Assembly (NCBI RefSeq): GCF_041248615.1
Contig: NZ_CP158426.1
DNA length: 64,000 nucleotides
Strand: one strand, 5' to 3'
DNA from: Escherichia coli
GTDB taxonomy: Bacteria > Pseudomonadota > Gammaproteobacteria > Enterobacterales > Enterobacteriaceae
Shown here: one piece after another, positions 24,860 to 43,023 of the stretch
How positions within the stretch are numbered: the first letter of the stretch is position 1
How the letters are laid out: the number at the start of each line of letters is the position of its first letter
Position numbers and translations under genes: made by a program
The notes under the pieces: model-generated
The model's database searches: none
What the model was told of the DNA's origin: nothing
Seen by the model: only the letters and a program-made list of their open reading frames with translations

Positions 24860-26297
24860 GCCATTTCAGCGCCCGTTTTCGCTGGCAACCCGCCTGACCT
24901 TTTTTATCAGCCTCGCCACCATCGCGGCGTTTTTCGCCTTTGCATGGATCATGATCCACTCGGTAAAAGTGCATTTTGCCGAGCAGGATATTAATGATTT
25001 AAAAGAGATTAGCGCCACCCTTGAACGGGTACTTAATCACCCTGACGAAACGCAAGCCCGACGCTTAATGACGCTGGAAGATATCGTCAGTGGTTATTCC
25101 AATGTATTGATCTCCCTGGCAGATAGCCACGGTAAAACGGTGTATCACTCCCCCGGTGCGCCGGATATCCGCGAGTTTACGCGTGACGCCATACCCGATA
25201 AAGACGCGCGGGGCGGCGAGGTGTATCTCCTTTCCGGCCCGACGATGATGATGCCAGGCCACGGTCACGGGCATATGGAACACAGCAACTGGCGGATGAT
25301 TAGCTTGCCGGTTGGCCCACTGGTGGACGGCAAACCGATTTATACGCTCTACATTGCGCTTTCGATCGATTTTCATCTTCATTACATAAATGATTTGATG
25401 AATAAACTTGTAATGACCGCATCGATCATTAGCATCCTGATCGTCTTTATCGTGCTGTTGGCGGTACATAAAGGTCACGCGCCGATCCGCAGCGTCAGCC
25501 GTCAAATCCAGAATATCACCTCGAAAGATCTCGACGTTCGCCTTGACCCGCAGACCGTGCCCATTGAGCTGGAACAGCTGGTACTGTCGTTCAACCATAT
25601 GATCGAGCGTATTGAGGATGTCTTTACCCGCCAGTCCAATTTCTCAGCGGATATCGCTCACGAAATTCGCACGCCGATTACCAATCTCATCACGCAAACG
25701 GAAATCGCCCTCAGCCAGTCGCGCAGCCAGAAGGAGCTGGAAGATGTGCTCTACTCTAATCTCGAAGAGCTGACGCGAATGGCGAAAATGGTCAGCGATA
25801 TGCTGTTTCTCGCTCAGGCCGATAACAACCAGCTAATCCCCGAAAAGAAAATGCTCAACCTGGCGGATGAAGTCGGCAAAGTGTTCGATTTTTTCGAGGC
25901 GTTAGCGGAAGATCGCGGCGTGGAGTTGCGGTTTGTTGGCGACAAATGTCAGGTTGCGGGCGATCCGCTGATGCTGCGTCGGGCGTTAAGCAACCTGCTT
26001 TCTAATGCCCTGCGTTATACGCCACCCAGTGAGGCTATTGTAGTGCGCTGCCAGACGGTCGATCACCAGGTGCAAGTTTCCGTCGAAAACCCCGGTACGC
26101 CCATTGCGCCCGAGCACTTACCGCGATTGTTTGACCGTTTCTACCGCGTTGACCCCTCCCGCCAGCGAAAAGGCGAAGGTAGCGGTATTGGGCTGGCGAT
26201 AGTGAAATCGATTGTTGTCGCGCATAAAGGCACGGTTGCAGTAACGTCAGATGCTCGGGGGACAAGGTTTGTGATTATGCTGCCGGAGAGAGAGTGA
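24849..26297 (+). CDS. cusS: Copper/silver sensor histidine kinase
   Basis: 482 aa, two TM helices, H-box [12 protein letters not shown], ATPase domain; overlaps cusR stop. Confidence 0.95.
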
Positions 26298-27033
26298 TTA
26301 TTAAGTTCAAATTCAGGGCGTGGTGCATCACCTCCTGGTATTGTTGATCAACAAATTAGAGAAAAACTTATTAAACATATGAAATATCGAAGGCTTTTAT
26401 TTTTCAAAGTTTCACGAGATGTTTGTATATGAAACTTAGTTAAATCTGTGTTTCTTCCAATTGTAGATCACAATGCCCTTTCTAAATTTTCATCGTTATA
26501 AACAAGCCATCTATCATATAAAGCAATGAATAATTTAATCGCGATTAATCATCATTAATTGTTATATTATTCACTCAATCTATTTATCAAGTGAATTTGA
26601 TAAATTCCTAATTTAAAATATCCACTATTGAGCCAGTATTTAACAACGTTAAGATGTGCAATGTGCAGATCATGTTATCAGGGTGGAGCGGTAGCATATA
26701 TTTCTTATGCAATCATTCATTTTAATAATGTTAATTGGATTATTTATTGCTGTGAATAAAAATATATTATGAATATTGGTTTAACTTTGCGTTTTTGTTA
26801 CTCGTTGTGATATGCGTACCTGTCCTGAATAACGCCAAGAAACAAGAGGTTGAGCTTGTGATTATTTTTTTGACTGAACAGACACCCGTTTCTGTAAAGT
26901 AATATTTAAACAAAATTCTCACATAACCATAGCATTTTCTGTTCCTTCCCTAATAACGTCTGAAGTCGTCCCGCTTATCACATTATCCGCAGTTGTACGG
27001 TACGGATCATTATTCATTTTACTGGAGGTTGCT
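26298..27033. promoter_or_regulatory. AT-rich, ORF-free leader (about 735 bp) upstream of vgrG; left edge of the Rhs island
   Basis: Markedly AT-rich, no ORF of 60 aa or more in any frame. Confidence 0.3.
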
Positions 27034-28935
27034 ATGTCAACCGGATTACGTTTCACACTGGAAGTGGACGGCCTGCCGCCGGATGCTTTTGCGGTGGTTT
27101 CCTTTCATCTGAACCAGTCACTCTCTTCGCTCTTTTCCCTCGATCTCTCCCTGGTCAGCCAGCAGTTTCTCTCCCTTGAATTTGCGCAGGTGCTGGACAA
27201 AATGGCCTACCTGACGGTATGGCAGGGCGATGACGTACAGCGCCGGGTGAAAGGCGTGGTGACCTGGTTTGAACTCGGGGAGAACGACAAAAACCAGATG
27301 CTGTACAGCATGAAGGTGCACCCGCCGCTGTGGCGTGCCGGTCTGCGCCAGAACTTCCGTATCTTCCAGAACGAGGACATCAAAAGCATCCTCGGCACGA
27401 TGTTGCAGGAAAACGGGGTGACCGAATGGAGTCCGCTGTTCAGCGAGCCGCATCCTTCCCGTGAGTTTTGTGTCCAGTACGGTGAGACTGATTACGATTT
27501 CCTGTGCCGGATGGCGGCGGAGGAAGGCATCTTCTTTTATGAGGAGCATGCTTACAAAAGTACCGACCAGAGCCTGGTGCTGTGCGACACAGTCCGCCAT
27601 CTGCCCGAATCTTTTGAAATCCCATGGAACCCGAACACCCGTACCGAGGTGAGCACCCTCTGCATCAGCCAGTTCCGCTACAGCGCACAAATCCGCCCTT
27701 CTTCCGTGGTGACCAAAGACTACACCTTTAAACGCCCCGGCTGGGCCGGACGTTTTGAACAGGAAGGCCAGCACCAGGACTACCAGCGCACGCAGTATGA
27801 AGTGTATGACTACCCCGGACGTTTCAAGGGTGCCCACGGGCAGAACTTTGCCCGCTGGCAGATGGACGGCTGGCGAAACAATGCAGAAACCGCGCGGGGA
27901 ATGAGTCGCTCGCCGGAGATATGGCCGGGACGACGAATTGTGCTGACGGGGCATCCGCAGGCGAACCTGAACCGGGAATGGCAGGTGGTGGCAAGTGAAC
28001 TGCACGGCGAACAGCCACAGGCGGTGCCAGGACGGCAGGGAGCGGGGACGGCGCTGGAGAACCATTTTGCGGTGATCCCGGCAGACAGAACATGGCGACC
28101 ACAGCCGTTGCTGAAACCGCTGGTCGACGGCCCGCAGAGCGCTGTCGTGACAGGACCGGCAGGCGAGGAAATCTTCTGCGACGAACATGGTCGCGTGCGG
28201 GTGAAGTTCAACTGGGACCGCTATAACCCGTCAAACCAGGACAGTTCGTGCTGGATCCGTGTGGCACAGGCGTGGGCAGGCACCGGTTTTGGCCACCTGG
28301 CGATACCGCGTGTGGGTCAGGAGGTGATTGTAGACTTCCTCAACGGCGATCCGGACCAGCCGATCATTATGGGGCGCACCTACCACCAGGAAAACCGCAC
28401 CCCCGGCAGCCTGCCGGGAACAAAGACGCAGATGACCATCCGCTCCAAAACGTACATGGGCAGCGGATTTAATGAGCTGAAGTTTGATGATGCGACAGGG
28501 AGAGAACAGGTCTACATCCACGCGCAGAAGAACATGGATACCGAAGTGCTCAACGACCGTACCACCACCGTAAAACACGATCACCACGAAACCGTAAAAA
28601 ATGACCAGACGGTCACGATCCAGGAAGGTAACCGCCTTCTTACGGTGGAAAAAGGCCACAAGATCACCGGAGTACTGAAAGGGTCTTTATCTGAGGATGT
28701 CTTTCAGGACAGAGGCACGATTGCCGGTTCGGTGCATGTTGACGCTGTAAACAATGGTGGCGAAGGCGACGGTATACAGGCTTATACGGCGATTAAGGAA
28801 ATTTTGCTGGCCGTGGAGGAAAGCAAAATTGCGCTGACGCCGGATGGCATTCAGCTACAGGTCGGGGAATCGACGGTAATCAGGCTGTCGAAGGATGGCA
28901 TCACCATCGTGGGCGGTTCTGTTTTCATCAACTGA
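27034..28935 (+). CDS. vgrG: VgrG spike protein (type VI secretion; Rhs-associated Vgr)
   Basis: 633 aa, gp27/gp5-like VgrG sequence directly upstream of Eag-like and PAAR-Rhs genes. Confidence 0.9.
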   Translation: MSTGLRFTLEVDGLPPDAFAVVSFHLNQSLSSLFSLDLSLVSQQFLSLEFAQVLDKMAYLTVWQGDDVQRRVKGVVTWFELGENDKNQMLYSMKVHPPLWRAGLRQNFRIFQNEDIKSILGTMLQENGVTEWSPLFSEPHPSREFCVQYGETDYDFLCRMAAEEGIFFYEEHAYKSTDQSLVLCDTVRHLPESFEIPWNPNTRTEVSTLCISQFRYSAQIRPSSVVTKDYTFKRPGWAGRFEQEGQHQDYQRTQYEVYDYPGRFKGAHGQNFARWQMDGWRNNAETARGMSRSPEIWPGRRIVLTGHPQANLNREWQVVASELHGEQPQAVPGRQGAGTALENHFAVIPADRTWRPQPLLKPLVDGPQSAVVTGPAGEEIFCDEHGRVRVKFNWDRYNPSNQDSSCWIRVAQAWAGTGFGHLAIPRVGQEVIVDFLNGDPDQPIIMGRTYHQENRTPGSLPGTKTQMTIRSKTYMGSGFNELKFDDATGREQVYIHAQKNMDTEVLNDRTTTVKHDHHETVKNDQTVTIQEGNRLLTVEKGHKITGVLKGSLSEDVFQDRGTIAGSVHVDAVNNGGEGDGIQAYTAIKEILLAVEESKIALTPDGIQLQVGESTVIRLSKDGITIVGGSVFIN

Positions 28936-28962
28936 TTCACTCAGATTATCAGGGAGTATTTT

Positions 28963-29424
28963 ATGCAGTTCACTTTTAATGAAGGCCACATTCAACTGCC
29001 GTCTCAATGGCAGGATCAGTCAATGCAGGTCCTGGTGTCCACAGATAACAGTGGCATCAACCTGGTCATTACCCGCGAAGCCGTTCCACAGGGAACCCTG
29101 ACACCAGAGCTGTACCAGGAAACGCTGGCGCTGTACCAGGGCAAACTTGATGGGTACACCGAACATGCCTGCCGGGAAATCACTCTGGCAGAGGCCCCGG
29201 CCTGGCTGCTGGATTATTCCTGGAACGGTCCGGAAGATGAGGGGAATCAGGGGCGGATTAGCCAGATAGCCGTATTCCAGCGGCGTGGAGATACGCTGCT
29301 GACCTTCACTTTCAGCACCTCCTTATCCCTGAAGAACAGTCAAAAGACGATGCTGCTGGAGGTGATAAAGAGCTTCACCCCGTTGCCACCGGAGAATGAC
29401 ATCCAAAAGGACCAGCCGCGCTGA
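28963..29424 (+). CDS. DUF1795 (Eag-family) effector-associated chaperone
   Basis: 153 aa small protein immediately upstream of a prePAAR-Rhs effector; position and size typical of Eag chaperones. Confidence 0.7.
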   Translation: MQFTFNEGHIQLPSQWQDQSMQVLVSTDNSGINLVITREAVPQGTLTPELYQETLALYQGKLDGYTEHACREITLAEAPAWLLDYSWNGPEDEGNQGRISQIAVFQRRGDTLLTFTFSTSLSLKNSQKTMLLEVIKSFTPLPPENDIQKDQPR

Positions 29425-29443
29425 CATAAACGAGGGATAACAC

Positions 29444-32400
29444 ATGAGTGAAGGACCAGGCGGGCCACAGGGAGCGACCGCAGGCGGTACGCTGGCAATG
29501 CGAATGCTGTCACAGCAGGCGATGGTCGCCAGCCAGATGAAACGGGCAGCCAACGACAAAGCCATTGCACAGATGCTGGCATCAAAAAAGTCCGGCCCCC
29601 CCGCCGCCAGGCTGGGCGATGAAATTCAGCACAAGAGTTTTTTGGGGGCGCTGGCAGGGGCCGTGCTGGGGGCGATAGTGACCATCGCAGAAGGTTGCCT
29701 GATTATGGCCGCCTGTGCCACCGGCCCTTATGCGCTGGTTCTGGTGCCTGCGCTGATGTATGCCAGCTATAAGGCGAGTGATTATGTGGAGGAGAAACAG
29801 AACCAGCTTGAATCATGGATAAACAGCTTTTGTGACACGGACGGCGCCATCAATACCGGTTCTGAAAATGTAAACATTAACGGAAAGCCCGCTGCCAGGG
29901 CCGCCGTCACCCTTCCCCCTCCTCCCCCACCTGGAGCAATACCTGAAATCCCACAGGGGGAACCCTCATGGGGTGATATTGCCACTGACCTGCTTGAATC
30001 GGCAGCGGAAAAAGCAGTACCACTGGCGAAGGCCTGGGGGAACGCTGTTATCACCCTGACGGACAGCAATGCCGGTTTTATGGATCGCGTCAGCGCCGGC
30101 GCATCGCTTCTGTTTCCCGCCGGTCCGGTATTAATGGAGTTTGCCACCATGGTGGGCGGGCGTGGCGAAATCAAAAAAGACGTGGATTTCCCGGAAGCCG
30201 GTGAGGACACGGCGCTCTGCGACAAGGAGAACAAACCGCCGAGGATAGCCCAGGGCAGCAGCAACGTCTTTATCAACAATCAGCCTGCTGCACGCAAGGG
30301 GGACAAACTGGAGTGCAGTGCGGCAATCGTGGAAGGTTCGCCGGACGTCTTTATTGGGGGTGAGCAGGTCACCTATCTGGATATCCAGCCGGAGTTCCCG
30401 CCGTGGCAGAGAATGATCCTGGGGGGAATAACGATAGCCAGCTATCTTCTGCCGCCAGCGGGACTGCTGGGAAAACTGAAGAATCTGGCGAGACTCGGCA
30501 AACTGGGAAACCTGCTGGGGAAAAGCGGGAAGCTGCTGGGGGCAAAGCTCGGCGCGTTGCTGGGGAAAACAGGTAAGTCGTTAAAAAGTATTGCCAATAA
30601 AGTCATCAGATGGGTAACAGATCCTGTCGATCCGGTAACCGGCGCATACTGCGACGAACGTACCGACTTTACGCTGGGCCAGACACTCCCCCTCTCCTTC
30701 ACCCGTTTCCACAGTTCTGTACTGCCACTGCATGGCCTGACGGGCGTGGGCTGGAGCGACTCCTGGAGCGAATACGCCTGGGTGCGTGAACAGGGAAACC
30801 GGGTGGATATCATCAGCCAGGGAACCACGCTGAGATTTGCCTTCGACGGTGACAGTGATACGGCGGTTAACCCGTATCACGCCCAGTACATTCTGCGCCG
30901 CCGCGATGATTACCTGGAGCTGTTCGACAGGGATGCACTGAGCAGCCGCTTCTTTTATGACGCCTTTCCGGGAATGCGTCTGCGCCACCCGGTGACTGAC
31001 GATACCAGCGATGACCGTCTGGCACACAGCCCCGCAGACCGGATGTACATGCTGGGCGGGATGAGCGACACCGCCAGCAACCGCATCACGTTTGAGCGCG
31101 ACAGCCAGTACCGGATCACAGGTGTCAGTCACACTGACGGGATCCGGCTTAAACTGACGTACCACGCCAGCGGCTACCTGAAAGCCATTCACCGCACGGA
31201 TAACGGCATACAGACGCTGGCGACCTACGAACAGGATGCGCGGGGGCGGCTGACAGAAGCGGATGCGCGGCTGGACTACCACCTGTTTTATGAGTACGAC
31301 GCTGCGGACCGGATCATCCGCTGGTCCGATAACGACCAGACGTGGAGCCGTTTCACCTACGATGAACAGGGCCGGTGCGTGAATGTCACCGGGGCGGAGG
31401 GCTATTACAACGCCACGCTGGACTATGGTGACGGCTGCACCACCGTGACGGACGGCAAGGGCATTCACCGTTATTACTATGATCCTGACGGCAATATTCT
31501 GCGGGAAGCAGCGCCGGACGGCAGCACCACCATGTATGAATGGGATGAATTCCATCACCTGCTGGCCCGTCACTCCCCTGCCGGGCGGGTGGAGAAATTT
31601 GAATACAACGCCGCACACGGTCAGTTAAGCCGTTACACGGCGGCAGACGGCGCGGAGTGGCAGTACCGCTATGATGAGCGCGGCCTGCTCAGCAACATCA
31701 CCGACCCTGCCGGGCAGACGTGGACACAGCAGTGTGATGAACGCGGCCTGCCGGTAAGTCTGGTGTCGCCACAGGGCGAAGAGACCCGGCTGGCATACAC
31801 CGCTCAGGGGCTGCTGTCGGGAATATTCCGCCAGGATGAACGGCGTCTGGGCATAGAGTACGACCACCACAACCGGCCGGAAACACTCACCGACGTGATG
31901 GGCCGCGAACACCACACCGAATACAGTGGTCACGACCTGCCGGTGAAGATGCGCGGCCCCGGCGGTCAGTCAGTGCGCTTACAGTGGCAGCAGCACCATA
32001 AACTGAGTGGCCTTGAGCGCACTGGCACCGGCGCGGAAGGATTCCGCTACGACCGCCACGGCAACCTGCTGGCCTGGACGGACGGTAACGGTGTTGTCTG
32101 GACAATGGAATACGGCCCGTTTGATTTGCCGGTGGCGCGAACGGACGGTGAAGGCCACCGCTGGCAGTACCGCTACGATAAAGACACGCTGCAACTGACA
32201 GAAGTCATTAACCCGCAGGGTGAGTCATATCTTTATGTTCTGGATAACTGCGGCCGGGTGACGGAAGAGCATGACTGGGGCGGCGTGGTCTGGCGTTACC
32301 GCTATGACGCCGATGGCCTGTGTACCGCCAGGGTCAACGGCCTGGAGGAAACCATCCTCTACAGCCGGGACGCCGCAGGCCGCCTGGCAGAAGTCATCAC

Positions 32401-34303
32401 GCCGGAAGGCAAAACGCAGTATGCCTATGACAAATCCGGCAGGCTGACGGGTATCTTCAGCCCGGACGGCACATCACAGCGCACCGGCTATGACGAACGC
32501 GGGCGGGTGAATGTCACCACTCAGGGCCGACGGGCCATTGAATACCACTACCCCGACGAACACACCGTCATCCGCTGTATCCTGCCACCGGAAGATGAAC
32601 GCGACAGACACCCCGGTGAATCCCTGCTGAAAACCACGTACCGCTACAACGCCGCCGGAGAACTGACGGAGGTCATTCTGCCGGGGGATGAGACGCTGAC
32701 GTTCAGCCGTGATGAGGCAGGACGTGAAGTGCTCCGGCACAGTAACCGGGGTTTTGCCTGTGAACAGGGCTGGAATGCAGCCGGTCAGCCTGTCAGTCAG
32801 CGCGCCGGACTTTTCCCGGCAGAAGCCACATGGGGCGGGCTGCTCCCCTCACGGGTACGGGAGTACCGTTACGACAGCGCGGGTAATGTGTCAGGCGTCA
32901 CCAGCCGGGAAGATTACGGACGGGAAACACGGCGGGAATACCGGCTGGACCGGAACGGCCAGGTCACGGCGGTGACAGCCTCAGGCACCGGGCTGGGCTA
33001 TGGCGAAGGCGATGAGTCCTATGGCTATGACAGCTGCGGCTACCTGAAGGCGCAGTCTGCGGGCTGGCACCGGATAAGTGAAGAGACTGACCAGTATGCC
33101 GGAGGCCACCGGCTGAAACAGGCCGGAAACACGCAGTATGACTATGACGCCGCAGGCCGGATGGTCAGCCGCACCAGACACCGTGACGGCTATCGCCCGG
33201 AAACAGAGCGGTTCCGGTGGGACAGCCGTGACCAGCTGACCGGGTATTGCAGCGCACAGGGTGAGCAGTGGGAATACCGCCACGACGCCAGCGGCAGACG
33301 AACAGAGAAACGCTGCGACCGGAAGAAAATCCGCATCACGTACCTGTGGGACGGCGACAGTATTGCGGAAATCCGGGAATACCGCGATGATAAACTGTAC
33401 AGCGTACGGCACCTGGTGTTTAACGGCTTTGAGCTGATAAGCCAGCAGTTCAGCCGGGTACGGCAGGCGCATCCGTCGGTGGCCCCGCAGTGGGTGACAC
33501 GGACGAATCATGCGGTGAGCGACCTGACGGGCCGTCCGCTGATGCTCTTTAACAGTGAAGGTAAAACCGTCTGGCGACCGGGACAGACCAGCCTGTGGGG
33601 GCTGGCACTCAGCCTGCCCGCGGACACCGGCTACCCGGACCCGCGCGGGGAGCTGGACGCGGAAGCCGCCCCCGGCCTGCTGTATGCGGGACAGTGGCAG
33701 GATGCGGAATCGGGGCTGTGCTATAACCGGTTCCGGTACTACGAGCCGGAAACCGGGATGTACCTGGTGAGTGATCCGCTGGGGTTGCAGGGAGGGGAAC
33801 AGACTTACCGGTATGTGCCTAATCCGTGTGGGTATGTTGATCCGCTGGGGCTGGCAAAAACTTCTGTTCCCGTATCAATAGTAGAACCAAAAAAAATCAC
33901 TGGTAACTTTAAAACAATTCGAGAAAAATTAAGGCTTGCCAGGAATGGTGATGTTTCTGCACAAGCCGAAATTGCATACGCAAAATATATGCGTAGTTTG
34001 GGAAAGGATGTGCATTTCAATACACCTCCGAATCGCTCAGTATCAATGGCAGATTTTACAATTGATGGAATCCAGGTTGATACAAAATTATTGAGTGGTA
34101 TAGGCGGAAATGCTGCAAAAAATGTTAACAAGGGAGTTGGCCAGGTGGGAGATAATGGTATCGTCCTGGTAATTAGAAATTCTAATTCCAAAAATACACT
34201 TGAGGAATTTCATGAATTCTTTGGAAACTTCAAACCTAATAATTCAACAGTTCGAGTTGAAGTGATTGATCAATCCGTTTTAGAACCTTTTTGGAGATTT
34301 TAA
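29444..34303 (+). CDS. rhs: prePAAR/PAAR-Rhs polymorphic toxin (full length) with variable C-terminal toxin domain CT1
   Basis: 1619 aa; prePAAR motif AARLGDEIQH (29603-29632), two TM helices, PAAR-like region, many YD repeats, demarcation PxxxxDPxGL (PCGYVDPLGL), then AT-rich 149-aa CT. Confidence 0.95.
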   Translation: MSEGPGGPQGATAGGTLAMRMLSQQAMVASQMKRAANDKAIAQMLASKKSGPPAARLGDEIQHKSFLGALAGAVLGAIVTIAEGCLIMAACATGPYALVLVPALMYASYKASDYVEEKQNQLESWINSFCDTDGAINTGSENVNINGKPAARAAVTLPPPPPPGAIPEIPQGEPSWGDIATDLLESAAEKAVPLAKAWGNAVITLTDSNAGFMDRVSAGASLLFPAGPVLMEFATMVGGRGEIKKDVDFPEAGEDTALCDKENKPPRIAQGSSNVFINNQPAARKGDKLECSAAIVEGSPDVFIGGEQVTYLDIQPEFPPWQRMILGGITIASYLLPPAGLLGKLKNLARLGKLGNLLGKSGKLLGAKLGALLGKTGKSLKSIANKVIRWVTDPVDPVTGAYCDERTDFTLGQTLPLSFTRFHSSVLPLHGLTGVGWSDSWSEYAWVREQGNRVDIISQGTTLRFAFDGDSDTAVNPYHAQYILRRRDDYLELFDRDALSSRFFYDAFPGMRLRHPVTDDTSDDRLAHSPADRMYMLGGMSDTASNRITFERDSQYRITGVSHTDGIRLKLTYHASGYLKAIHRTDNGIQTLATYEQDARGRLTEADARLDYHLFYEYDAADRIIRWSDNDQTWSRFTYDEQGRCVNVTGAEGYYNATLDYGDGCTTVTDGKGIHRYYYDPDGNILREAAPDGSTTMYEWDEFHHLLARHSPAGRVEKFEYNAAHGQLSRYTAADGAEWQYRYDERGLLSNITDPAGQTWTQQCDERGLPVSLVSPQGEETRLAYTAQGLLSGIFRQDERRLGIEYDHHNRPETLTDVMGREHHTEYSGHDLPVKMRGPGGQSVRLQWQQHHKLSGLERTGTGAEGFRYDRHGNLLAWTDGNGVVWTMEYGPFDLPVARTDGEGHRWQYRYDKDTLQLTEVINPQGESYLYVLDNCGRVTEEHDWGGVVWRYRYDADGLCTARVNGLEETILYSRDAAGRLAEVITPEGKTQYAYDKSGRLTGIFSPDGTSQRTGYDERGRVNVTTQGRRAIEYHYPDEHTVIRCILPPEDERDRHPGESLLKTTYRYNAAGELTEVILPGDETLTFSRDEAGREVLRHSNRGFACEQGWNAAGQPVSQRAGLFPAEATWGGLLPSRVREYRYDSAGNVSGVTSREDYGRETRREYRLDRNGQVTAVTASGTGLGYGEGDESYGYDSCGYLKAQSAGWHRISEETDQYAGGHRLKQAGNTQYDYDAAGRMVSRTRHRDGYRPETERFRWDSRDQLTGYCSAQGEQWEYRHDASGRRTEKRCDRKKIRITYLWDGDSIAEIREYRDDKLYSVRHLVFNGFELISQQFSRVRQAHPSVAPQWVTRTNHAVSDLTGRPLMLFNSEGKTVWRPGQTSLWGLALSLPADTGYPDPRGELDAEAAPGLLYAGQWQDAESGLCYNRFRYYEPETGMYLVSDPLGLQGGEQTYRYVPNPCGYVDPLGLAKTSVPVSIVEPKKITGNFKTIREKLRLARNGDVSAQAEIAYAKYMRSLGKDVHFNTPPNRSVSMADFTIDGIQVDTKLLSGIGGNAAKNVNKGVGQVGDNGIVLVIRNSNSKNTLEEFHEFFGNFKPNNSTVRVEVIDQSVLEPFWRF

Positions 34304-34307
34304 AAAT

Positions 34308-34784
34308 ATGATCACCAAATCAAGTATACTCATAGAGTATAAAGATAAAAGTAAACTAACCGAAAGTATTTATAAGTTTGTAAATGCTCTAGATATTGAC
34401 TTTTCGATATTAAAATATGACTACTTTGATGTAAATGAGTATAAAAAAAATATTACTTATGACACATCTTTTATTGACAAAGATGCAGAATATATTGAAT
34501 TATTAGCGAAGATTGATTTTTCTTATGAAGTTGATTTCGGCACATCAACAACATCGATTGAAAGCAAGTATCTTCCATCTCTAACTGATTTCATCGCTCA
34601 ATCACTATCACAACAATTAAATTGTAACATAATAACCAGCTTTAAACCATTAAGTGGAGATGAGTTTTGCCCAATAACATATTTTTCAAAAGGTAAAGAA
34701 GTTATCAATTTTACGACATTTAATTCAAATTGTTGGGATGGGGTATACTGGGTAAAAAAAAGGAGGCAAACAAATATCCGCTAA
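34308..34784 (+). CDS. Putative cognate immunity protein for Rhs CT1
   Basis: 158 aa, AT-rich ORF 5 nt after the rhs stop, in the usual immunity position. Confidence 0.6.
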   Translation: MITKSSILIEYKDKSKLTESIYKFVNALDIDFSILKYDYFDVNEYKKNITYDTSFIDKDAEYIELLAKIDFSYEVDFGTSTTSIESKYLPSLTDFIAQSLSQQLNCNIITSFKPLSGDEFCPITYFSKGKEVINFTTFNSNCWDGVYWVKKRRQTNIR

Positions 34785-34902
34785 CGTAGTTTTTCAATAG
34801 CTACACCATGTCACGTAACATGATGCCTGGATATTAACAGAAAGACAGAAGTGGACTCAGCGGTGAGATGAACGCAGCCTGAGTCTGAAGTACGACCTGC
34901 CG

Positions 34903-37233
34903 GTGAAGATGCGCGGCCCCGGCGGTCAGTCAGTGCGGTTGCAGTGGCAGCAGCACCATAAACTGAGTGGCCTTGAGCGCACTGGCACCGGCGCGGAAGG
35001 GTTCAGCTATGACCGCCACGGCAACCTGCTGGCCTGGACGGACGGCAATGGTGTTGTCTGGACAATGGAGTACGGCCCGTTCGATTTGCCGGTGGCGCGA
35101 ACGGACGGTGAAGGCCACCGCTGGCAGTACCGCTATGATAAAGACACGCTGCAACTGACAGAAGTCATTAACCCGCAGGGTGAGTCATATCTTTATGTTC
35201 TGGATAACTGCGGCCGGGTGACGGAAGAGCATGACTGGGGCGGCGTGGTCTGGCGTTACCGCTATGACGCCGATGGCCTGTGTACCGCCAGGGTCAACGG
35301 CCTGGAGGAAACCATCCTCTACAGCCGGGACGACGCAGGCCGCCTGGCAGAAGTCATCACGCCGGAAGGCAAAACGCAGTATGCGTATGACAAATCCGGC
35401 AGGCTGACGGGTATCTTCAGCCCGGACGGCACATCACAGCGCACCGGCTATGACGAACGCGGGCGGGTGAATGTCACCACTCAGGGCCGACGGGCCATTG
35501 AATACCACTACCCCGATGAACACACCGTCATCCGCTGTATCCTGCCACCGGAAGATGAACGCGACAGACACCCCGGTGAATCCCTGCTGAAAACCACGTA
35601 CCGCTACAACGCAGCCGGAGAACTGGCAGAGGTCATCCTGCCGGAGGATGAGACGCTGACGTTCAGCCGTGATGAGGCAGGACGTGAAGTGCTCCGGCAC
35701 AGTAACCGGGGTTTTGCCTGTGAGCAGGGCTGGAATGCAGCCGGTCAGCTTACCAGCCAGCGCGCCGGACTTTTCCCGGCAGAAGCCACATGGGGCGGGC
35801 TGCTCCCCTCACGGGTACGGGAGTACCGTTACGACAGCGCGGGTAATGTGTCAGGCGTCACCAGCCGGGAAGATTACGGACGGGAAACACGGCGGGAATA
35901 CCGGCTGGACCGGAACGGCCAGGTCACGGCGGTGACAGCCTCAGGCACCGGGCTGGGCTATGGCGAAGGCGATGAGTCCTATGGCTATGACAGCTGCGGC
36001 TACCTGAAGGCGCAGTCTGCGGGCTGGCACCGGATAAGTGAAGAGACTGACCAGTATGCCGGAGGCCACCGGCTGAAACAGGCCGGAAACACGCAGTATG
36101 ACTATGACGCCGCAGGCCGGATGGTCAGCCGCACCAGACACCGTGACGGCTATCGCCCGGAAACAGAGCGGTTCCGGTGGGACAGCCGTGACCAGCTGAC
36201 CGGGTATTGCAGCGCACAGGGTGAGCAGTGGGAATACCGCCACGACGCCAGCGGCAGACGAACAGAGAAACGCTGCGACCGGAAGAAAATCCGCATCACG
36301 TACCTGTGGGACGGCGACAGTATTGCGGAAATCCGGGAATACCGCGATGATAAACTGTACAGCGTACGGCACCTGGTGTTTAACGGCTTTGAGCTGATAA
36401 GCCAGCAGTTCAGCCGGGTACGGCAGGCGCATCCGTCGGTGGCCCCGCAGTGGGTGACACGGACGAATCATGCGGTGAGCGACCTGACGGGCCGTCCGCT
36501 GATGCTCTTTAACAGTGAAGGTAAAACCGTCTGGCGACCGGGACAGACCAGCCTGTGGGGGCTGGCACTCAGCCTGCCCGCGGACACCGGCTACCCGGAC
36601 CCGCGCGGGGAACTGGACGCGGAAGCCGACCCCGGCCTGCTGTATGCAGGACAGTGGCAGGATGCGGAATCCGGGCTGTGCTATAACCGGTTCCGGTATT
36701 ACGAGCCGGAAACAGGGATGTACCTGGTGAGTGATCCGCTGGGGTTGCTGGGGGGTGAGCAGACTTACCGGTATGTGCCGAATCCGTGTGGGTATGTTGA
36801 TCCTTTGGGATTAGCAACATGTCCCATAATCAGACAACGGGTGCTGGCTAACCTTGAAGCCAGTCGGGCAGCAAGGGCTGCATCTAATTTTGGTAAGAAA
36901 AATATCTATGATTTTATCAAGGCAACTCAATCTGCTATCCCTGGCACCTCTATCCCAAAATCTTTTGAGATTATAACTGCTAATGGTACTTTCTGGGTAC
37001 ACCCAAATGCTACAAAACATATGGCTGAATATTTGACTCGGAACGGTCTCTCACATTCAACTTCTGTAGAGAGCCAAATAATGTTAACAAGTTTTCACGA
37101 AGCTGTAAGTTTGGCTAGTGCTCAAGGTATAAAGTATGAAGAAATGATGAATGTTGGCGGCTGGGAACTAGTATTTAGTCAAGCTAAATCTGACTCGGCT
37201 TTATCAGTTATTAAACATGCTCTTTATAAATGA
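34903..37233 (+). CDS. rhs: Orphan 5'-truncated rhs fragment (core repeat plus distinct C-terminal toxin CT2)
   Basis: 776-aa ORF with GTG start; 34892-36813 nearly identical to main rhs 31932-33853; PxxxxDPxGL followed by unrelated 139-aa CT. Confidence 0.85.
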   Translation: MKMRGPGGQSVRLQWQQHHKLSGLERTGTGAEGFSYDRHGNLLAWTDGNGVVWTMEYGPFDLPVARTDGEGHRWQYRYDKDTLQLTEVINPQGESYLYVLDNCGRVTEEHDWGGVVWRYRYDADGLCTARVNGLEETILYSRDDAGRLAEVITPEGKTQYAYDKSGRLTGIFSPDGTSQRTGYDERGRVNVTTQGRRAIEYHYPDEHTVIRCILPPEDERDRHPGESLLKTTYRYNAAGELAEVILPEDETLTFSRDEAGREVLRHSNRGFACEQGWNAAGQLTSQRAGLFPAEATWGGLLPSRVREYRYDSAGNVSGVTSREDYGRETRREYRLDRNGQVTAVTASGTGLGYGEGDESYGYDSCGYLKAQSAGWHRISEETDQYAGGHRLKQAGNTQYDYDAAGRMVSRTRHRDGYRPETERFRWDSRDQLTGYCSAQGEQWEYRHDASGRRTEKRCDRKKIRITYLWDGDSIAEIREYRDDKLYSVRHLVFNGFELISQQFSRVRQAHPSVAPQWVTRTNHAVSDLTGRPLMLFNSEGKTVWRPGQTSLWGLALSLPADTGYPDPRGELDAEADPGLLYAGQWQDAESGLCYNRFRYYEPETGMYLVSDPLGLLGGEQTYRYVPNPCGYVDPLGLATCPIIRQRVLANLEASRAARAASNFGKKNIYDFIKATQSAIPGTSIPKSFEIITANGTFWVHPNATKHMAEYLTRNGLSHSTSVESQIMLTSFHEAVSLASAQGIKYEEMMNVGGWELVFSQAKSDSALSVIKHALYK

Positions 37234-37763
37234 CGATTATGCTTACATTAGAAAATGAAACAAACTACAAAGATGTTGTTGTTAATATAGATGAATTTGT
37301 ACCTTTTGATATAACTTTTGGAAAGGGGAGCGAACAGTGTTTGTACTGGAGAGGCGGCAATGGTAAAAGTTCTTTGGTTGAAGTTGGGTTAAATATGTAC
37401 AGCGGAGAAGTAAGTAACATCACACTAGCAAATATCGATTCAGGTGAAATTAACATTACAGATGAGATGTTAGCCAACAACCTTCCTGAAATACAAGGGT
37501 CTGTTATATTTCAGACAAGCGAGTGGCTTAATAAAGACATTTCCGAATACTCAAACAGATTTATTGATGATTTTGATTGCAATATCAAGTTAATAATTGG
37601 TAGTAATTACATTAAATTATTATTTAAAAAAGCAACAAATCCCATTTGTTATATCATTAATAGGAATATAAGATTTGGTTTTTCTTTGAGTAGGGAACTT
37701 TCGACATTGGAAATATTAGACCTCAATCAAGAAAAATTAGATATTCTAAAGTTATTTAAATAG
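37230..37763 (+). CDS. Putative cognate immunity protein for orphan CT2
   Basis: 177 aa AT-rich ORF whose ATG overlaps the rhs-CT2 stop (ATGA). Confidence 0.6.
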   Translation: MTIMLTLENETNYKDVVVNIDEFVPFDITFGKGSEQCLYWRGGNGKSSLVEVGLNMYSGEVSNITLANIDSGEINITDEMLANNLPEIQGSVIFQTSEWLNKDISEYSNRFIDDFDCNIKLIIGSNYIKLLFKKATNPICYIINRNIRFGFSLSRELSTLEILDLNQEKLDILKLFK

Positions 37764-38242
37764 TTTTAGTGTTTGAAACTTACCGAGAGATGATAGCTAT
37801 GAATGAATACAAAAACATCCATCTTGGAGGAAACAATGGAATGTTAATCCATTAAAAAACATACTTCAATATCTTTAGTGAAGAAAGAGTTGTATGAAAG
37901 AAATATATCTTATGTGAGCGACATGATGCATGCTAATTATATTATTGGCCGGAAATTTTATGATGATAGCAAAAAGGAGGGGTTATTTCTGTAAGAATGG
38001 ATATACCCGCAGGGTTTGAACCAGACATTTATTTGTTGAAGTCTAAGATCCAAATGGAAGCATTTATATCCCTCAGATATTATGCGTTGACGGGTTGATA
38101 AAGATACTTTTAGAGGGTTAATAAATGGAGAACGTATAATAAATCTCTTAAACAAACTATAACCTGTACTAATGAAAAAAATGGGAATAGATAAGTTAAT
38201 AGCCTATTCTAAAAATGGTAAAGTGGTTTTACTTCCAAAATA

Positions 38243-38686
38243 ATGGAGTTTAGTATGAAAATCGAAGCTAATTCCCTTACTCATCCCTATGACTACAACG
38301 CCTCACTGAACAATTATTTACATTATTTTGAGAATTTCTCTCGTAATGACTGGAATAAAGATTCATGTGGAGGATATTTTACTTTTAGAGATGATGACAG
38401 AGAGTGTGTTTTGTTTTTTGTGAATTATGGTGATAATTTTTCATTGCGCTATGATTGTACACAAAGTTCTGATGGAATAGTGTCATGCTGGTATAGTAAC
38501 CATGAAGATGATAAAATGAATATCATCGTCGATGCTGATACAGAACAATTTATCCCTTTAGGTTCTTGCTTACCTCCTGATATTACTTTATCAGTAATAA
38601 AAGATTTTTTCAAAAATCCTTTAGAGAAATCAAAAAAAGTAAAATGGATGAATGCAGATGACATTGACTGGTCATCTGTGTATTAA
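38243..38686 (+). CDS. Hypothetical protein, possible orphan immunity protein
   Basis: 147 aa AT-rich ORF inside the Rhs island with no adjacent toxin; no recognised motif. Confidence 0.4.
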   Translation: MEFSMKIEANSLTHPYDYNASLNNYLHYFENFSRNDWNKDSCGGYFTFRDDDRECVLFFVNYGDNFSLRYDCTQSSDGIVSCWYSNHEDDKMNIIVDADTEQFIPLGSCLPPDITLSVIKDFFKNPLEKSKKVKWMNADDIDWSSVY

Positions 38687-38911
38687 AGTTGGATTGGATA
38701 ATTATCTGTTTCAAAAATCATTAAATTTAGAACCTATCTGTTCAACAGAGCTGCCTTGAACAGCAGGTTCTTTTATGATGTCCAGGAGCGAATATGCCTG
38801 TGATGTCTGGCACTCAGCATCTGACTGACCTGGACTACTGATCCTACTCACACAGGGAGCTAGACCTGGAAGCAACCTACTGTAAGCAGTGCAGTAGCAG
38901 CCCACCTCACA

Positions 38912-38950
38912 TCAGTCCTTGCAAGGTGTGGGCCTTTGTGATCTTGCTCT
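38912..38950. mobile_element. Degenerate remnant resembling the right terminus of an H-repeat/ISAs1-family element
   Basis: About 31 of 40 nt identical to the right end of the complete H-repeat copy at 44492-44531. Confidence 0.3.
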
Positions 38951-39297
38951 GTATTGCTGAGATCCTCAGGAAGGACTCGAAATTTAATCAGGAAGGCCGT
39001 TGCTAAAAATCAAAAAATAAATTCAAGAGCAATTTCTAAAACTTTTGAATCTACTGTATCGGATGAGGTTTTCACTCCTTTCCAAAAGGTGAGTTTTCAA
39101 GCATTCAAGTTTCTGTTATGACCAAAACTTCACCATTTAACACTAATCCGAGTATTATGTTACCATGAAGAAAAAAGATATTAGATTTGCAATATCCATT
39201 AACTCCAACTCAAGTAAGATAGAATTAATGGAAAAATTAAAAACATAATCCCAGGGCTTATTGAAATAACTCCCAGTGCATTAAGAGAAGAAAAAAC

Positions 39298-39513
39298 ATG
39301 GTAGTTATTGAAGATAATGATCTTTATGACCCTATAAAAGCAGAGGGAGTTGATGGATGGATGTATTATAAATTCATATTATCCATATTCCCATTAAAGG
39401 GAGTAGACACAACATTAGAATATCAACGGGAATTATCTTTTCTTTTCTTAAAGAAATTAAAAGATGCGGGTCTGTTAGGTGAACTTATATGCGAGGATGA
39501 TTTTCATGACTGA
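39298..39513 (+). CDS. Hypothetical small protein (71 aa), possible immunity-gene remnant
   Basis: ORF only; AT-rich; within Rhs island. Confidence 0.25.
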   Translation: MVVIEDNDLYDPIKAEGVDGWMYYKFILSIFPLKGVDTTLEYQRELSFLFLKKLKDAGLLGELICEDDFHD

Positions 39514-39577
39514 TGACCTCTACATATATCCTCAGTTCGTGGCTGGTATTACATGATCTGACAGGGAAAGATCGTAG

Positions 39578-39873
39578 CGAAATCAAAAAAGACGTGGATT
39601 TCCCGGAAGCCGGTGAAGACACAGCGCTCTGCGACAAGGAGACTAAACCGCCGAGGATAACCCAGGGCAGCAGCAACGTTTTTATCAACAATCAGCCCGC
39701 CGCGCGCAAGGGGGACAAACTGGAGTGCAGTGCGGCGATCGTGGGAGGTTCGCCGGACGTCTTTATTGGGGGTGAGCAGGTCACCTATCTGGATATCCAG
39801 CCGGAGTTCCCGCCGTGGCAGAGAATGATCCTGGGGGGAATAACGATAGCCAGCTATCTTCTGCCGCCAGCGC
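39578..39873 (+). pseudogene. Fragment of a PAAR-Rhs N-terminal (PAAR) region
   Basis: About 296 bp nearly identical to main rhs 30166-30461; lies in track ORF 39513-39890; abutted on the right by H-repeat end sequence. Confidence 0.75.
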
Positions 39874-39960
39874 AGGGAAAGATCACGTAACGCTGCTTTT
39901 TTGTACTAAATAATTCGCACTAAATGTTCAATAATTGAGATATTCCTTATTACCTAAATA
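39874..39960. mobile_element. Left-terminus remnant (about 85 bp) of an H-repeat/ISAs1-family element
   Basis: Matches the first ~90 bp of the complete H-repeat at 43242-43335 (cagggaaagatca...ttgtactaaataattcgca...ttgagatattcct). Confidence 0.55.
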
Positions 39961-40003
39961 CAGTTCCACCAAGATTACCTAAACCCAAATGAGGTAAAAG
40001 ATA

Positions 40004-40372
40004 GTGGGTATGAATAAAAATGAAATCCATTTCCCTATAGGATATGGTTGGTTGAATGAAAAAAAAATTATTGGCACCAGTGAATTTAGCCAATTAGAAC
40101 CATGGTTTTATCTAGATGAGAACAGGTGTTTTTTTGCGAATAAAAAATGGCCAAATGTCATAGGTGAACAATTATTCGCTTTTGCTAAACGTCAAGATAA
40201 TGATGAATTGGCTTGTTTCAAAATTAATGAATCTGGAGTCTGTGAGGGTGTTTATTTAATTAATGGGTGGACTCCTAACGGGTTTGATATTATACAATTT
40301 TACCCTGATTTTTGGGAATGGGTACATTTGGTTATACAAGATGTCTCGGAGTGGATTGATAATAAAGGATAA
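40004..40372 (+). CDS. Hypothetical protein, possible orphan immunity protein
   Basis: 122 aa AT-rich ORF upstream of orphan rhs-CT3; no recognised motif. Confidence 0.4.
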   Translation: MGMNKNEIHFPIGYGWLNEKKIIGTSEFSQLEPWFYLDENRCFFANKKWPNVIGEQLFAFAKRQDNDELACFKINESGVCEGVYLINGWTPNGFDIIQFYPDFWEWVHLVIQDVSEWIDNKG

Positions 40373-40401
40373 TTTGAAACAAAAGTAAAAAACCGCCTTC
40401 A

Positions 40402-41100
40402 TTGAAGGTAACGTGGAGTGGTGGGCGGAGCAGCCTGCCCGCAGACACAGACTACCCGGACCCGCGCGGGGAGCGGGACGCGGAAGCCGACCCCGGCCTG
40501 CTGTATGCAGGACAGTGGCAGGATGCGGAATCCGGACTGTGCTATAACCGGTTCCGGTATTACGAGCCGGAAACCGGGATGTACCTGGTGAGTGATCCCC
40601 TGGGGTTGCTGGGGGGTGAGCAGACTTACCGGTATGTGCCTAATCCTAGTGGGTATGTTGATCCTCTGGGATTAGCAACGTGTCCTATACTCAGACAGTG
40701 GGCGCTGACTAACCTTGAAGCCAGTCGGGCAGCAAGGGCTGCATCTAATTTTGGTAAGCCTCTGGTCCAGCGAAATAAAACGATTGGCGATAAAGTAAGG
40801 GATATGATTGCCAAAGAGAGGGGAACCACTCTAATTGAACAAAATTATAGAGTGACAGGAGGATTAAAGCGTATTGACGTTGTTGATGGAGTAACGGGTA
40901 TAGAATCTAAAGTCGGTCGAACAGGGTTAACAACCCGAGTACGGCAAGAGGTAGCGCGGGATATTAAGATTTTGAGAAGTGAGCAACTTGATCAAATTGA
41001 ATGGGTGTTTACAAGAAGTTCAACTACAGGGAAGATTGGGCCAACTAAACCACTTGAAGATCTTTTAAATAAACATGGTATACCGATTATTTATCGATAA
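40402..41100 (+). CDS. rhs: Orphan rhs C-terminal fragment (short core remnant plus toxin CT3 with possible PD-(D/E)xK-like motif)
   Basis: 232-aa ORF with TTG start; 40432-40674 homologous to the end of the main rhs core; PxxxxDPxGL then 141-aa CT containing RIDVVDGVTGIESK. Confidence 0.8.
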   Translation: MKVTWSGGRSSLPADTDYPDPRGERDAEADPGLLYAGQWQDAESGLCYNRFRYYEPETGMYLVSDPLGLLGGEQTYRYVPNPSGYVDPLGLATCPILRQWALTNLEASRAARAASNFGKPLVQRNKTIGDKVRDMIAKERGTTLIEQNYRVTGGLKRIDVVDGVTGIESKVGRTGLTTRVRQEVARDIKILRSEQLDQIEWVFTRSSTTGKIGPTKPLEDLLNKHGIPIIYR

Positions 41101-41111
41101 GGAGTGATAGT

Positions 41112-41681
41112 GTGAAACTCAAACCGATTGGTGACTTTTTAAACAAAAATGGGTTTATAAAAAATGGTAACAATGATTTTTATAAAGTTCATGATAAGTT
41201 TGTAAATTGTATAAATTTTCAAAAAAAGAGTACAGGTGATATTTTTTTTATAAACACAGGTGTTCATCCTGTGTTCGAAAATTTTTGCAATGAACCACCG
41301 AAAAAAGAAATAGATTGTTACATCCGTAACCGTGTGTGTGATGGACTAAGTATATCTTTGCTGCATTCTTTTGAAGGTAGTGAGTTTGTTATCAGTGAGA
41401 TAAAAAACAAAGCGTTTTGTTTTTTTGAATACTTTGATTCATTGAATAAAATATTCGATGCTATTCGTGTTGTAGATATTGAAGAGAGAAATATTTGCGA
41501 TGAGCTAAGTGGTGTAAGCAGCGTAAGATTAGCTTTGATGTGTATGAACTACCAGTATGAGAAAAAAAAATTTAGCCTTGTTTCTGATTTTGCGAACTAT
41601 GGTCTTGCTATATCTAGAGGCCCGGTACCGAAAAAAGCATTGGATTTGCCCCTATATTTCCAGACACCTGTTATCACTTAA
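41112..41681 (+). CDS. Putative immunity protein for CT3, 3' end disrupted by IS2
   Basis: 189-aa ORF; last 13 codons lie inside IS2; the original frame resumes after the IS2 target duplication. Confidence 0.55.
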
Positions 41682-42557
41682 CCCATTACTGGCCTGCTGC
41701 CGCAGATATTCCCGTGGCGAGCGATAACCCAGTGCACTATGCGGATGCCATTCGTTATAATGCTCGAACGCCTCTGCAAGGTTCTTTGCTGCCGTTAACC
41801 CGTCTGGTTTAGGCATGATACTGATGTAGTCACGCTTTATCGTTTTCACGAAGCTCTCTGCTATGCCGTTACTCTCCGGACTCCGCACCGCCGTGTTCTT
41901 CGGTTCAAGCCCCAATATCCGGGCAAACTGCCGTGTTTCATTAGCCCGGTAGCATGAACCATTATCCGTCAGCCACTCTACTGGAGACGCCGGAAGCTCG
42001 TTGCCGAAGCGGCGTTCCACCGCTCCCAGCATGACGTCCTGTACTGTTTCACTGTCGAAGCCGCCCGTAGTGACTGCCCAGTGCAGTGCCTCACGGTCAC
42101 AGCAGTCCAGCGCGAACGTGACTCGCAGTTTTTCTCCGTTATCACAGCGGAACTCGAACCCGTCAGAGCACCATCGTTGATTGCTTTCTTTCACGGCCAC
42201 TTTGCCAGTATGTGCCCGTTTCGATGGCGGTACAGCGGTTTTTCGCTCAAGCAACAGCGCATTCTGGCGCATGATCCGGTAAACACGTTTGGCATTGATC
42301 GCAGGCGTACCATCAAGTTCGGCCTGTCTGCGAAGCAGCGCCCATACCCGACGATAACCATACGTGGGCAGCTCTCCGATAACATGGTGTATACGGAGAA
42401 GCACATCCGTATCATCTGAGTGACGGCTGCGGCGACCATCTTTCCAGTCATCGGTTCGTCTGAGAATTACGTGCAACTGCGCACGCGACACCCGGAGACA
42501 ACGGCTGACTAAGCTTACTCCCCATCCCCGGGCAATAAGGGCGCGTGCGCTATCCAC
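41652..42557 (-). CDS. insD: IS2 transposase OrfB
   Basis: 301 aa integrase-core protein recognised as IS2 InsD. Confidence 0.95.
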
Positions 42558-42880
42558 TTTTTTGCACGCCCGTATTCAACGGCTTCTTTAAGGAGTTCAT
42601 TTTCCATCGTTTTTTTGCCGAGCAGGCGCTGGAGTTCTTTAATCTGCTTCATGGCAGCAGCAAGTTCAGAGGCAGGAACGACCTGCTCTCCTGCGGCCAC
42701 AGCAGTAAGACTTCCCTCCTGGTATTGCTTGCGCCAGAGAAATAACTGGCTGGCTGCCACACCGTGTTGCCGGGCAACAAGGGAGACCTTCATTCCCGGT
42801 TCAAAACTCTGCTGAACAATAGCGATCTTTTCCTGTGTAGTACGCCGTCTGCGTTTCTCCGGTCCTAAGACATCAATCAT
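42515..42880 (-). CDS. insC: IS2 transposase OrfA (HTH)
   Basis: 121 aa from [14 protein letters not shown]; overlaps insD by 43 nt, consistent with the IS3-family frameshift window. Confidence 0.9.
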
Positions 42881-43023
42881 CTGCTCTCCAATGACTAGTC
42901 TAAAAACTAGTATTAAGACTATCACTTATTTAAGTGATATTGGTTGTCTGGAGATTCATGGGGCCAGTCTAAGCATTTAAGGATATGATAAAAATAACAG
43001 AGTGATACCTAATCCGGTGTAAT

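Follow-up and report, generated by a model that had tools for sequence, protein, structure and literature searches.

Where is the secretion apparatus for a complete set of type VI spike and effector genes when the surrounding DNA encodes none? This question is raised by a locus in a 64,000-nucleotide stretch of an Escherichia coli chromosome (contig NZ_CP158426.1; this whole stretch is called the window), in which a spike gene (vgrG), an Eag chaperone gene (eag), an rhs effector gene and a candidate immunity gene follow one another at positions 27034-34784. All four open reading frames (ORFs) are intact and lie on the + strand at the positions given in an earlier note on this DNA; the intergenic gaps are 27, 19 and 4 nt, with a Shine-Dalgarno-like sequence at each start. 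As that note had stated, type VI structural genes are missing nearby: no core genes of a type VI secretion system (T6SS) are annotated across the 64-kb window. The note left the choice between an apparatus encoded elsewhere and a silent orphan. The first part of this alternative is favoured here, and the second is not. With a probability of roughly 0.85, the locus represents a "vgrG island", a satellite island of type VI secretion effectors, and is served by a T6SS encoded at a distance of about 0.4 Mb.

The 12-kb stretch around the module is a 100% match to the chromosome of Escherichia coli NRZ14408 (NZ_LT599825.1). The window corresponds to positions 3,811,666-3,875,665 of this record, the ORF list and the annotation of the record agree over it, and the apparatus was sought in the same chromosome by walking it from K-12 map positions. 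One complete T6SS cluster was found at 4,238,277-4,267,304, about 0.4 Mb from the island and beside tRNA-Asp and dnaQ (aspV-linked), so a genome devoid of any apparatus is not what the search for tssA-M and hcp revealed. The cluster comprises hcp, tssB, tssC, tssE, tssF, tssG, tagH, tssJ, tssK, tssL (icmH/DotU), tssH, vasI, tssA, tssM and a gene with a VasL domain, as well as a divergently placed vgrG with an RHS core protein. In the region followed to 4,268,715, this second vgrG is directly succeeded by the gene of the "RHS element core protein", and no Eag gene lies between them.

The island vgrG (tssI; 27034..28935, + strand) encodes a protein of 633 aa that matches TIGR03361 with 625.6 bits (cut-off 186.35) and TIGR01646 with 443.3 bits. 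Its gp27/gp5 core is 93% identical to the VgrG of the T6SS cluster over aa 1-528. Beyond aa 528 the two proteins show no similarity, the cargo-binding C-terminus being fully diverged, and the last ~105 aa of the island protein are unique to it. Such a combination of a shared machine-facing core and private cargo-facing ends is the pattern expected of alternative spikes of one machine. Owing to the near identity of residues 1-528, a loaded island spike could be mounted on the distant apparatus.

The ratios of nonsynonymous to synonymous substitution rates (dN/dS) calculated against the O157:H7 orthologues were 0.074 for vgrG, 0.072 for eag and 0.147 for the rhs core. As judged from these sequence comparisons, the island genes are under purifying selection, and values of 0.07-0.15 argue against a decaying orphan. 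Of 5426 complete E. coli genomes, 2175 (~40%) carry the vgrG-eag-rhs junction, with one copy in each, and 2183 carry tssBC of the aspV-linked T6SS type. The near equality of these totals suggests co-inheritance of the module and the machine.

The second gene of the module (28963..29424, + strand) encodes a 153-aa Eag-family chaperone with the DUF1795/DcrB fold. The protein matches Pfam DcrB (PF08786) with an independent E-value (i-E) of 1.7e-27 over model positions 1-127 of 127; PF08786 is the family once named DUF1795 (PMC4524185). It also matches the solved chaperone EagT6/PA0094 (PDB 6xrf and 1tu1) at E 1e-5. The eag stop codon lies 19 nt before the rhs start, so that eag adjoins the prePAAR effector gene, and the placement of a DUF1795 gene after vgrG and directly upstream of rhs was read correctly from the beginning. 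The premise that effectors of this architecture need an Eag chaperone is in agreement with Ahmad et al. 2020, who reported the dependence of prePAAR effectors on Eag chaperones (PMC7773334). In Shiga toxin-producing E. coli, EagR is essential for Rhs translocation according to Ma et al. 2017, as cited in PMC7216683.

The third gene (29444..34303, + strand) is annotated as an RHS repeat-associated core protein of 1619 aa and is assigned here to the class-I prePAAR Rhs effectors. The prePAAR motif AARLGDEIQH was located with a regular expression exactly at 29603..29632 (aa 54-63), and Pfam prePAAR_I (PF25799) matches aa 54-100 with E 6.4e-5. In an alignment (A3) of the E. coli Rhs with seven homologues, namely Photorhabdus Rhs1 and six Pseudomonas prePAAR proteins, the prePAAR residues A11, A12, R13, D16 and H20 (trimmed numbering) are invariant. 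The earlier statement that the Rhs protein begins with prePAAR holds for the motif and its position, but not for the literal beginning, since 53 residues (29444-29602) stand ahead of it. Tse6-like proteins have the motif among their first ~15 residues, and a start at an internal methionine (M44) would place prePAAR similarly close to the N-terminus of the E. coli Rhs. This alternative was considered and rejected: the ATG at 29444 is preceded at a distance of 8 nt by a GAGGG Shine-Dalgarno sequence, and in Photorhabdus Rhs1, too, ~30 residues stand ahead of the motif.

The motif is followed by a hydrophobic transmembrane region of two helices at about aa 64-107 (29633..29764), the presumed Eag-binding site. 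Kyte-Doolittle windows of at least 1.4 cover about aa 63-107 and are centred on aa 72-87 and 90-98, which is consistent with the two hydrophobic helices proposed previously, and the region aligns to that of transmembrane domain 1 (TMD1) in Photorhabdus Rhs1 (PDB 7pq5). Class I prePAAR effectors are defined as having one TMD region ahead of PAAR and no other behind it (Ahmad et al. 2020). In the hydropathy profile of the E. coli Rhs, a weaker segment (1.62) is seen behind the PAAR domain at aa ~324-343, at the place of the post-PAAR helix in Photorhabdus Rhs1.

The PAAR-like region expected after the helices is present, although as a domain interrupted by an insertion of ~99 aa. The first part of the domain (aa 132-155; 29837..29908) ends with NGKPAARAAV, the insertion occupies aa 156-254 (29909..30205), and the second part covers aa 255-310 (30206..30373). 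Pfam PAAR_motif (PF05488) matches aa 266-310 (E 4.2e-10) and aa 132-153 (E 0.0097), and the second part also matches the PAAR protein PDB 4jiw (E 2.6e-7) and NF033420. The latter profile stays below its full-length cut-off because PAAR is split by the insertion. Against PDB 7pq5, the Rhs N-terminus gives E 1.2e-38 in two blocks, query 48-155 and 254-419.

The insertion appears as one clean gap in all seven A3 homologues, between the first "PAARA" strand and the D-x-A-x-C conserved in PAAR domains. It starts with TLPPPPPPGAIPEIP and is proline-rich at first, after which it is moderately hydrophobic and predicted to be helical. Of the hits examined, those with the insertion all come from Escherichia and Shigella relatives; Photorhabdus Rhs1 and the six Pseudomonas proteins lack it. 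The divergent Escherichia N-terminal hits are frameshifted or truncated pseudogene products and are uninformative on the conservation of the insertion. An AlphaFold 2 model of Rhs aa 44-345 was discarded: it was obtained from an 8-sequence alignment with a mean predicted local distance difference test score (pLDDT) of 46.6 and was of no use for the fold of the insertion.

The remainder of the protein has the features of an Rhs cage. NCBIfam profiles detect YD repeats (TIGR01643) in nine stretches and the Rhs-associated core (TIGR03696, 68.2 bits). With these matches, the profile searches for PAAR, DUF1795, VgrG and the RHS repeat support the spike, chaperone, effector and immunity assignments made earlier. 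An N-terminal plug region (Pfam DUF6531 at aa 393-462; 30620..30829) begins with DPVDPVTG at aa 393-400, which fits the N-terminal autocleavage signature and aligns around D288/P289 of Photorhabdus Rhs1. The putative aspartyl autoprotease site is recognisable by two DPLGL motifs (aa 1444-1448 and 1466-1470; 33773..33853) that are 17 residues apart. The N- and C-terminal autocleavage signatures have been demonstrated experimentally for Photorhabdus Rhs1, and the same DPLGL spacing occurs in Tc toxins (PMC8636562). By analogy, the predicted cleavage after L1470 would free the toxin. The sequence as far as the second DPLGL has a G+C content of 60.5%, the toxin tip one of 36% and the immunity gene one of 28.7%, and the drop at the second DPLGL represents the classic Rhs core/tip junction.

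The C-terminal toxin domain (33854..34303, + strand) comprises 149 aa and has no match in Pfam, NCBIfam or the PDB sequences. The same holds when both toxin tips and both immunity proteins of the island (for the second pair, see below) are compared with Pfam (as a concatenated query), NCBIfam and the PDB sequences. A word-indexed search for toxin homologues gave 9 hits only, and the alignment was built from an exhaustive search of 1.84 billion representatives, which yielded 54 homologue clusters at E <= 0.001. In all of the 27 relatives inspected the domain is C-terminal, and many carriers have an Rhs-type core or YD repeats ahead of it. In the 27-sequence alignment, E39, K78, G99, G102 and R108 are invariant, D67 is nearly so, and position 76 is either D or E, the resulting pattern being E...D...(D/E)xK. 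The AlphaFold model built from this alignment is confident (pLDDT 94.1, predicted template modelling score 0.85). The predicted fold is that of the PD-(D/E)xK nucleases, with the conserved acidic and lysine catalytic residues, and places the domain in a group resembling the CdiA-CT of Bp1026b.

From the model, the toxin is most likely a PD-(D/E)xK nuclease, with tRNA as the more likely substrate and DNA as the alternative. The closest predicted fold is that of the Burkholderia pseudomallei 1026b CdiA-CT tRNase (PDB 4g6v), to which E479 CdiA-CT (PDB 5j4a) is related. The differences from this group are the low sequence identity (21%), the carriage of the E. coli toxin by T6SS/Rhs instead of contact-dependent inhibition (CDI), and an immunity protein without detectable kin in known families. 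It is quite possible that the module is delivered as proposed while the toxin acts as a DNase or another phosphodiesterase and not as a tRNase. PD-(D/E)xK is mainly a DNase fold, and the structural matches of the toxin include the type II restriction enzymes EcoT38I and MspJI and the EC869 CdiA-CT DNase. Moreover, the D76-T-K78 arrangement has the classical D-x-K spacing of restriction enzymes, and the spacing in Bp1026b is reportedly wider (Morse et al. 2012). The tRNase remains preferred owing to the closest fold.

The fourth gene (34308..34784, + strand) starts 4 nt past the rhs stop codon and encodes 158 aa at 28.7% GC; its product, which belongs to no named family, is the candidate cognate immunity protein. 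Homologues of this protein (48-52% identity) are encoded directly after toxin homologues in two independent contigs (L006 and L007), where the toxins are ~70% and 81% identical to the 149-aa domain. Such downstream synteny is expected of a cognate immunity gene, and together with the 4-nt gap it supports, at the level of sequence, the immunity function assigned earlier to the gene after rhs. The toxin/immunity cassette (33850-34784) occupies the main rhs position in only 6 of the 5426 complete E. coli genomes, and about 570 genomes keep only the last ~62 toxin codons with the immunity gene. In ATCC 43896, the main tip is a different one, and a cassette remnant with a frameshifted immunity ORF (L008, 6001-6667) is located downstream of it.

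The following mechanism, all steps of which are inferred by homology, can be proposed. The four genes would be co-transcribed. An Eag dimer would shield the hydrophobic helices behind the prePAAR of Rhs, and prePAAR would complete the split PAAR cone, which would cap the trimer of the island VgrG. The loaded spike, whose VgrG residues 1-528 are near-identical to those of the cluster VgrG, would then be mounted on the aspV-linked T6SS and fired into neighbouring bacteria. The Rhs cage would hold the 149-residue toxin until aspartyl autocleavage after the second DPLGL frees it. The toxin would act as a PD-(D/E)xK nuclease, most likely a tRNase like Burkholderia CdiA-CT and less likely a DNase, and the 158-residue protein would neutralise it in sister cells. 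The orphan rhs fragments and immunity genes located downstream could be displaced older tips that keep immunity, and homologous recombination across a 1.9-kb repeat would permit exchange of the toxin tip.

The opposite explanation presents the island as a silenced, horizontally acquired remnant that contributes nothing here, with or without a T6SS elsewhere in the genome. One argument for it is the leader 5' of vgrG (26298..27033, + strand), which is part of the island and presumably contains its promoter or regulatory region. The leader was found to be AT-rich, as described before, with 736 bp at 31.5% GC, a composition typical of xenogeneic-silencing targets. In a scan for promoters and terminators, promoter-like sites were no commoner in the leader than in shuffled sequence; this can be cited for a silent locus, but the scan as such speaks neither for nor against silencing. 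Neither the leader nor the rest of the island matched Rfam at E <= 0.1. The leader is present at >=80% coverage in 2370 of the 5426 genomes, and its proximal ~450 bp are repeated with ~80% identity at second or third loci of many E. coli genomes. Other vgrG genes are a plausible site of these copies, which would suggest a shared regulatory region. The view of the leader as the mark of a silenced locus is a conjecture. Silencing is also in keeping with the clear decay of the distal half of the island (a partial PAAR, rhs pseudogenes and insertion sequence (IS) elements) and with the frameshifted state of the cassette in ATCC 43896. On the other hand, the four main ORFs are intact and have good ribosome-binding sites, dN/dS is low, the catalytic and cleavage motifs are all conserved, and a matching apparatus exists in the genome; furthermore, silencing in the laboratory would not be equal to loss of function. 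For these reasons, a mute remnant is considered improbable.

Several points nevertheless weigh against a functional satellite island with a tRNase toxin. Of the two hcp genes in the apparatus cluster, the second is interrupted by an internal stop and is a pseudogene. Laboratory expression of E. coli T6SS-2 is often poor, and H-NS could bind the AT-rich leader. The agreement between the numbers of modules and machines is, as said, one of totals. Characterised effectors offer no parallel to the PAAR insertion, and the PAAR cone is assumed to fold correctly around it. With regard to the toxin, the domain fails Pfam CdiA_C (PF18451; i-E 0.14), and of the 27-sequence set none passes at 0.001 and 6 pass at 0.1. 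In addition, the modelled fold matches both tRNases and DNases and hence gives no substrate. Finally, it is highly improbable that Rhs works independently of T6SS by another route, as once proposed for K-12 Rhs, with vgrG and eag as vestigial neighbours: the island does lie 0.4 Mb from the apparatus, and K-12 does keep several rhs genes and no T6SS, but prePAAR, PAAR, Eag and VgrG each serve specifically in T6SS spike loading and are all under purifying selection, K-12 lacks this island altogether, and the genome count of the module nearly equals that of the T6SS type.

The arrangement, which the earlier note implied to be unusual, has already been described at this locus (PMC2935791, PMC7216683). 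In enterohaemorrhagic E. coli O157:H7 EDL933, an island with vgrG1 (z0707), EagR (z0706) and rhsF (z0705) has been characterised as lying "outside of the T6SS island" (PMC7216683). It occupies the same site by cusS (Rhs locus 4) and has the same gene order. The O157:H7 vgrG and eag are equal in length to those found here, the junction DNA is ~98% identical, and the Rhs core protein is 90-100% identical. Past the second DPLGL the resemblance ends: O157:H7 has an unrelated tip and an unrelated immunity gene, and the downstream orphan cassettes differ.

The Photorhabdus VgrG-EagR-Rhs1 complex and Rhs1 autocleavage were described by Jurenas et al. 2021 (PMC8636562). The Photorhabdus laumondii module VgrG-EagR-Rhs1(Tre23)-Tri23 (PDB 7pq5) shares the vgrG-eagR-rhs-immunity order, an alignment that covers prePAAR, TMD, PAAR and the post-PAAR helix, the double DPLGL with 17-residue separation and the DP...TG N-terminal cleavage motif. 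However, the Photorhabdus module is situated within a T6SS cluster, and the E. coli module 0.4 Mb from its own. The E. coli Rhs is distinguished from Rhs1 by the ~99-aa PAAR insertion and a longer N-terminal extension. The toxins differ as well, that of Photorhabdus being an ADP-ribosyltransferase and that of E. coli having a predicted PD-(D/E)xK fold. With Salmonella Rhs1-SciW and P. protegens RhsA-EagR1 (Ahmad et al. 2020), the module has in common AARxxDxxxH, a hydrophobic region before PAAR, the Rhs cage and an adjacent DUF1795 gene. Compared to class I prePAAR effectors, the E. coli Rhs is longer (1619 aa versus typically ~1200 aa), has prePAAR only from residue 54, and carries an interrupted PAAR and a moderately hydrophobic post-PAAR segment.

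The island is intact but ordinary, its architecture, locus and chaperone logic being already established. Only the unnamed PD-(D/E)xK toxin with its immunity protein and the PAAR insertion go beyond the published descriptions found; for the insertion and the toxin tip, no published coverage was found. A tentative and rather doubtful idea is that the insertion forms an extra spike-tip element, for instance a second Eag-binding or membrane-active segment or a part that pairs with the C-terminus of its own VgrG, and that the toxin tip founds a distinct, unnamed PD-(D/E)xK family. The 54 clusters of this family are distributed over Rhs and other polymorphic-toxin scaffolds, and its substrate could be another than that of the Burkholderia CdiA-CT tRNases. 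More generally, a stand-alone vgrG-eag-rhs unit should not be called an orphan until the rest of the genome has been checked; here, the apparatus lies 0.4 Mb off and the spike core matches it. The module represents one more interchangeable warhead in the arsenal of E. coli for interbacterial competition. It is present in a clinical multidrug-resistant isolate and could affect competition during gut colonisation.

The island does not stop with the immunity gene. The unit described earlier as self-contained runs past 34784 through orphan rhs and immunity cassettes to ~44576. An orphan rhs fragment (34890..37233, + strand) contains YD repeats and the Rhs core without PAAR and carries a different tip, CT2, from 36814. 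It is overlapped at its stop codon by an AT-rich gene (37230..37763, + strand) for a 177-aa immunity candidate for CT2. The second tip has 139 aa, and neither it nor the 177-aa candidate matches Pfam or NCBIfam. An ungapped direct repeat of 1.93 kb with ~98% identity connects 31930-33855 with 34890-36815 and ends at the second DPLGL. Judging by its sequence, this repeat would be a ready substrate for recombination that deletes tip 1 together with its immunity gene and installs tip 2.

Decayed cassettes follow at 38243..41681 (+ strand), as seen from annotation and repeats, with small AT-rich ORFs, a PAAR remnant and an rhs 3' remnant. The PAAR remnant (39573-39872) is 96% identical to 30161-30460. 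The rhs 3' remnant with a third tip (40402-41100) precedes a DUF4304 immunity-like gene (41112-41681), the 3' end of which is overlapped by an IS3 element. The distal end of the island (41652..44521, no strand assigned) consists of this IS3-family element (41652-42925), a short rhs fragment (43031-43242) and an ISAs1 "H-repeat" transposase gene (43385-44521). Orphan rhs cassettes known from other work are similar in having a truncated rhs core with a different tip and its own immunity gene just downstream, and a long near-identical repeat ending at the DPLGL boundary. Experimental precedents for orphan rhs toxin/immunity cassettes were reportedly provided by Poole et al. 2011 and, in Salmonella, by Koskiniemi et al. 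2014. In its layout, the island follows the C-terminal displacement model of Jackson et al. 2009 (PMC2935791).

The whole Rhs/vgrG island spans ~18.3 kb (26273..44576, unstranded) between cusS and nfrB and is absent from K-12. BLAST comparison of the K-12 nfrB-cusS interval with the window showed that homology ends at 26272 and restarts at 44577. This site is the conserved Rhs locus 4 in the list of Jackson et al. 2009 (PMC2935791). The last ~25 nt of cusS are replaced by the island relative to K-12 (26273-26297). CusS has a different short C-terminal sequence here, with 482 aa versus 480 aa in K-12. Integration of the island at a tRNA gene was considered and rejected, as the interval 20-51.8 kb is devoid of tRNA genes and the nearest one, argU, lies 7 kb beyond the island.

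The first part of the window has the gene order fepG-fepC-fepE-entF-fes-fepA-entD, two hokE genes, ybdK-nfsB-ybdG-pheP and cusCFBA/cusRS; after the island come nfrBA, ybcH, envY, argU, the sfm fimbrial genes, folD, cysS and lpxH. The two hokE type I toxin genes are identical (same protein accession), lie on the minus strand at 11278-11430 and 11781-11933, ~500 bp apart, and are adjoined by a frameshifted pseudogene. The tRNA-Arg (tct) gene at 51796-51872 adjoins envY; a DLP12-type prophage is not present at that site, and ompT and appY are not in the annotated stretch. Elsewhere in NZ_LT599825.1, a Flag-2 lateral flagellar cluster with lafU, motA, lafA, flgL and flgK homologues lies between dinB and fadE, from ~4,186,800 onward.

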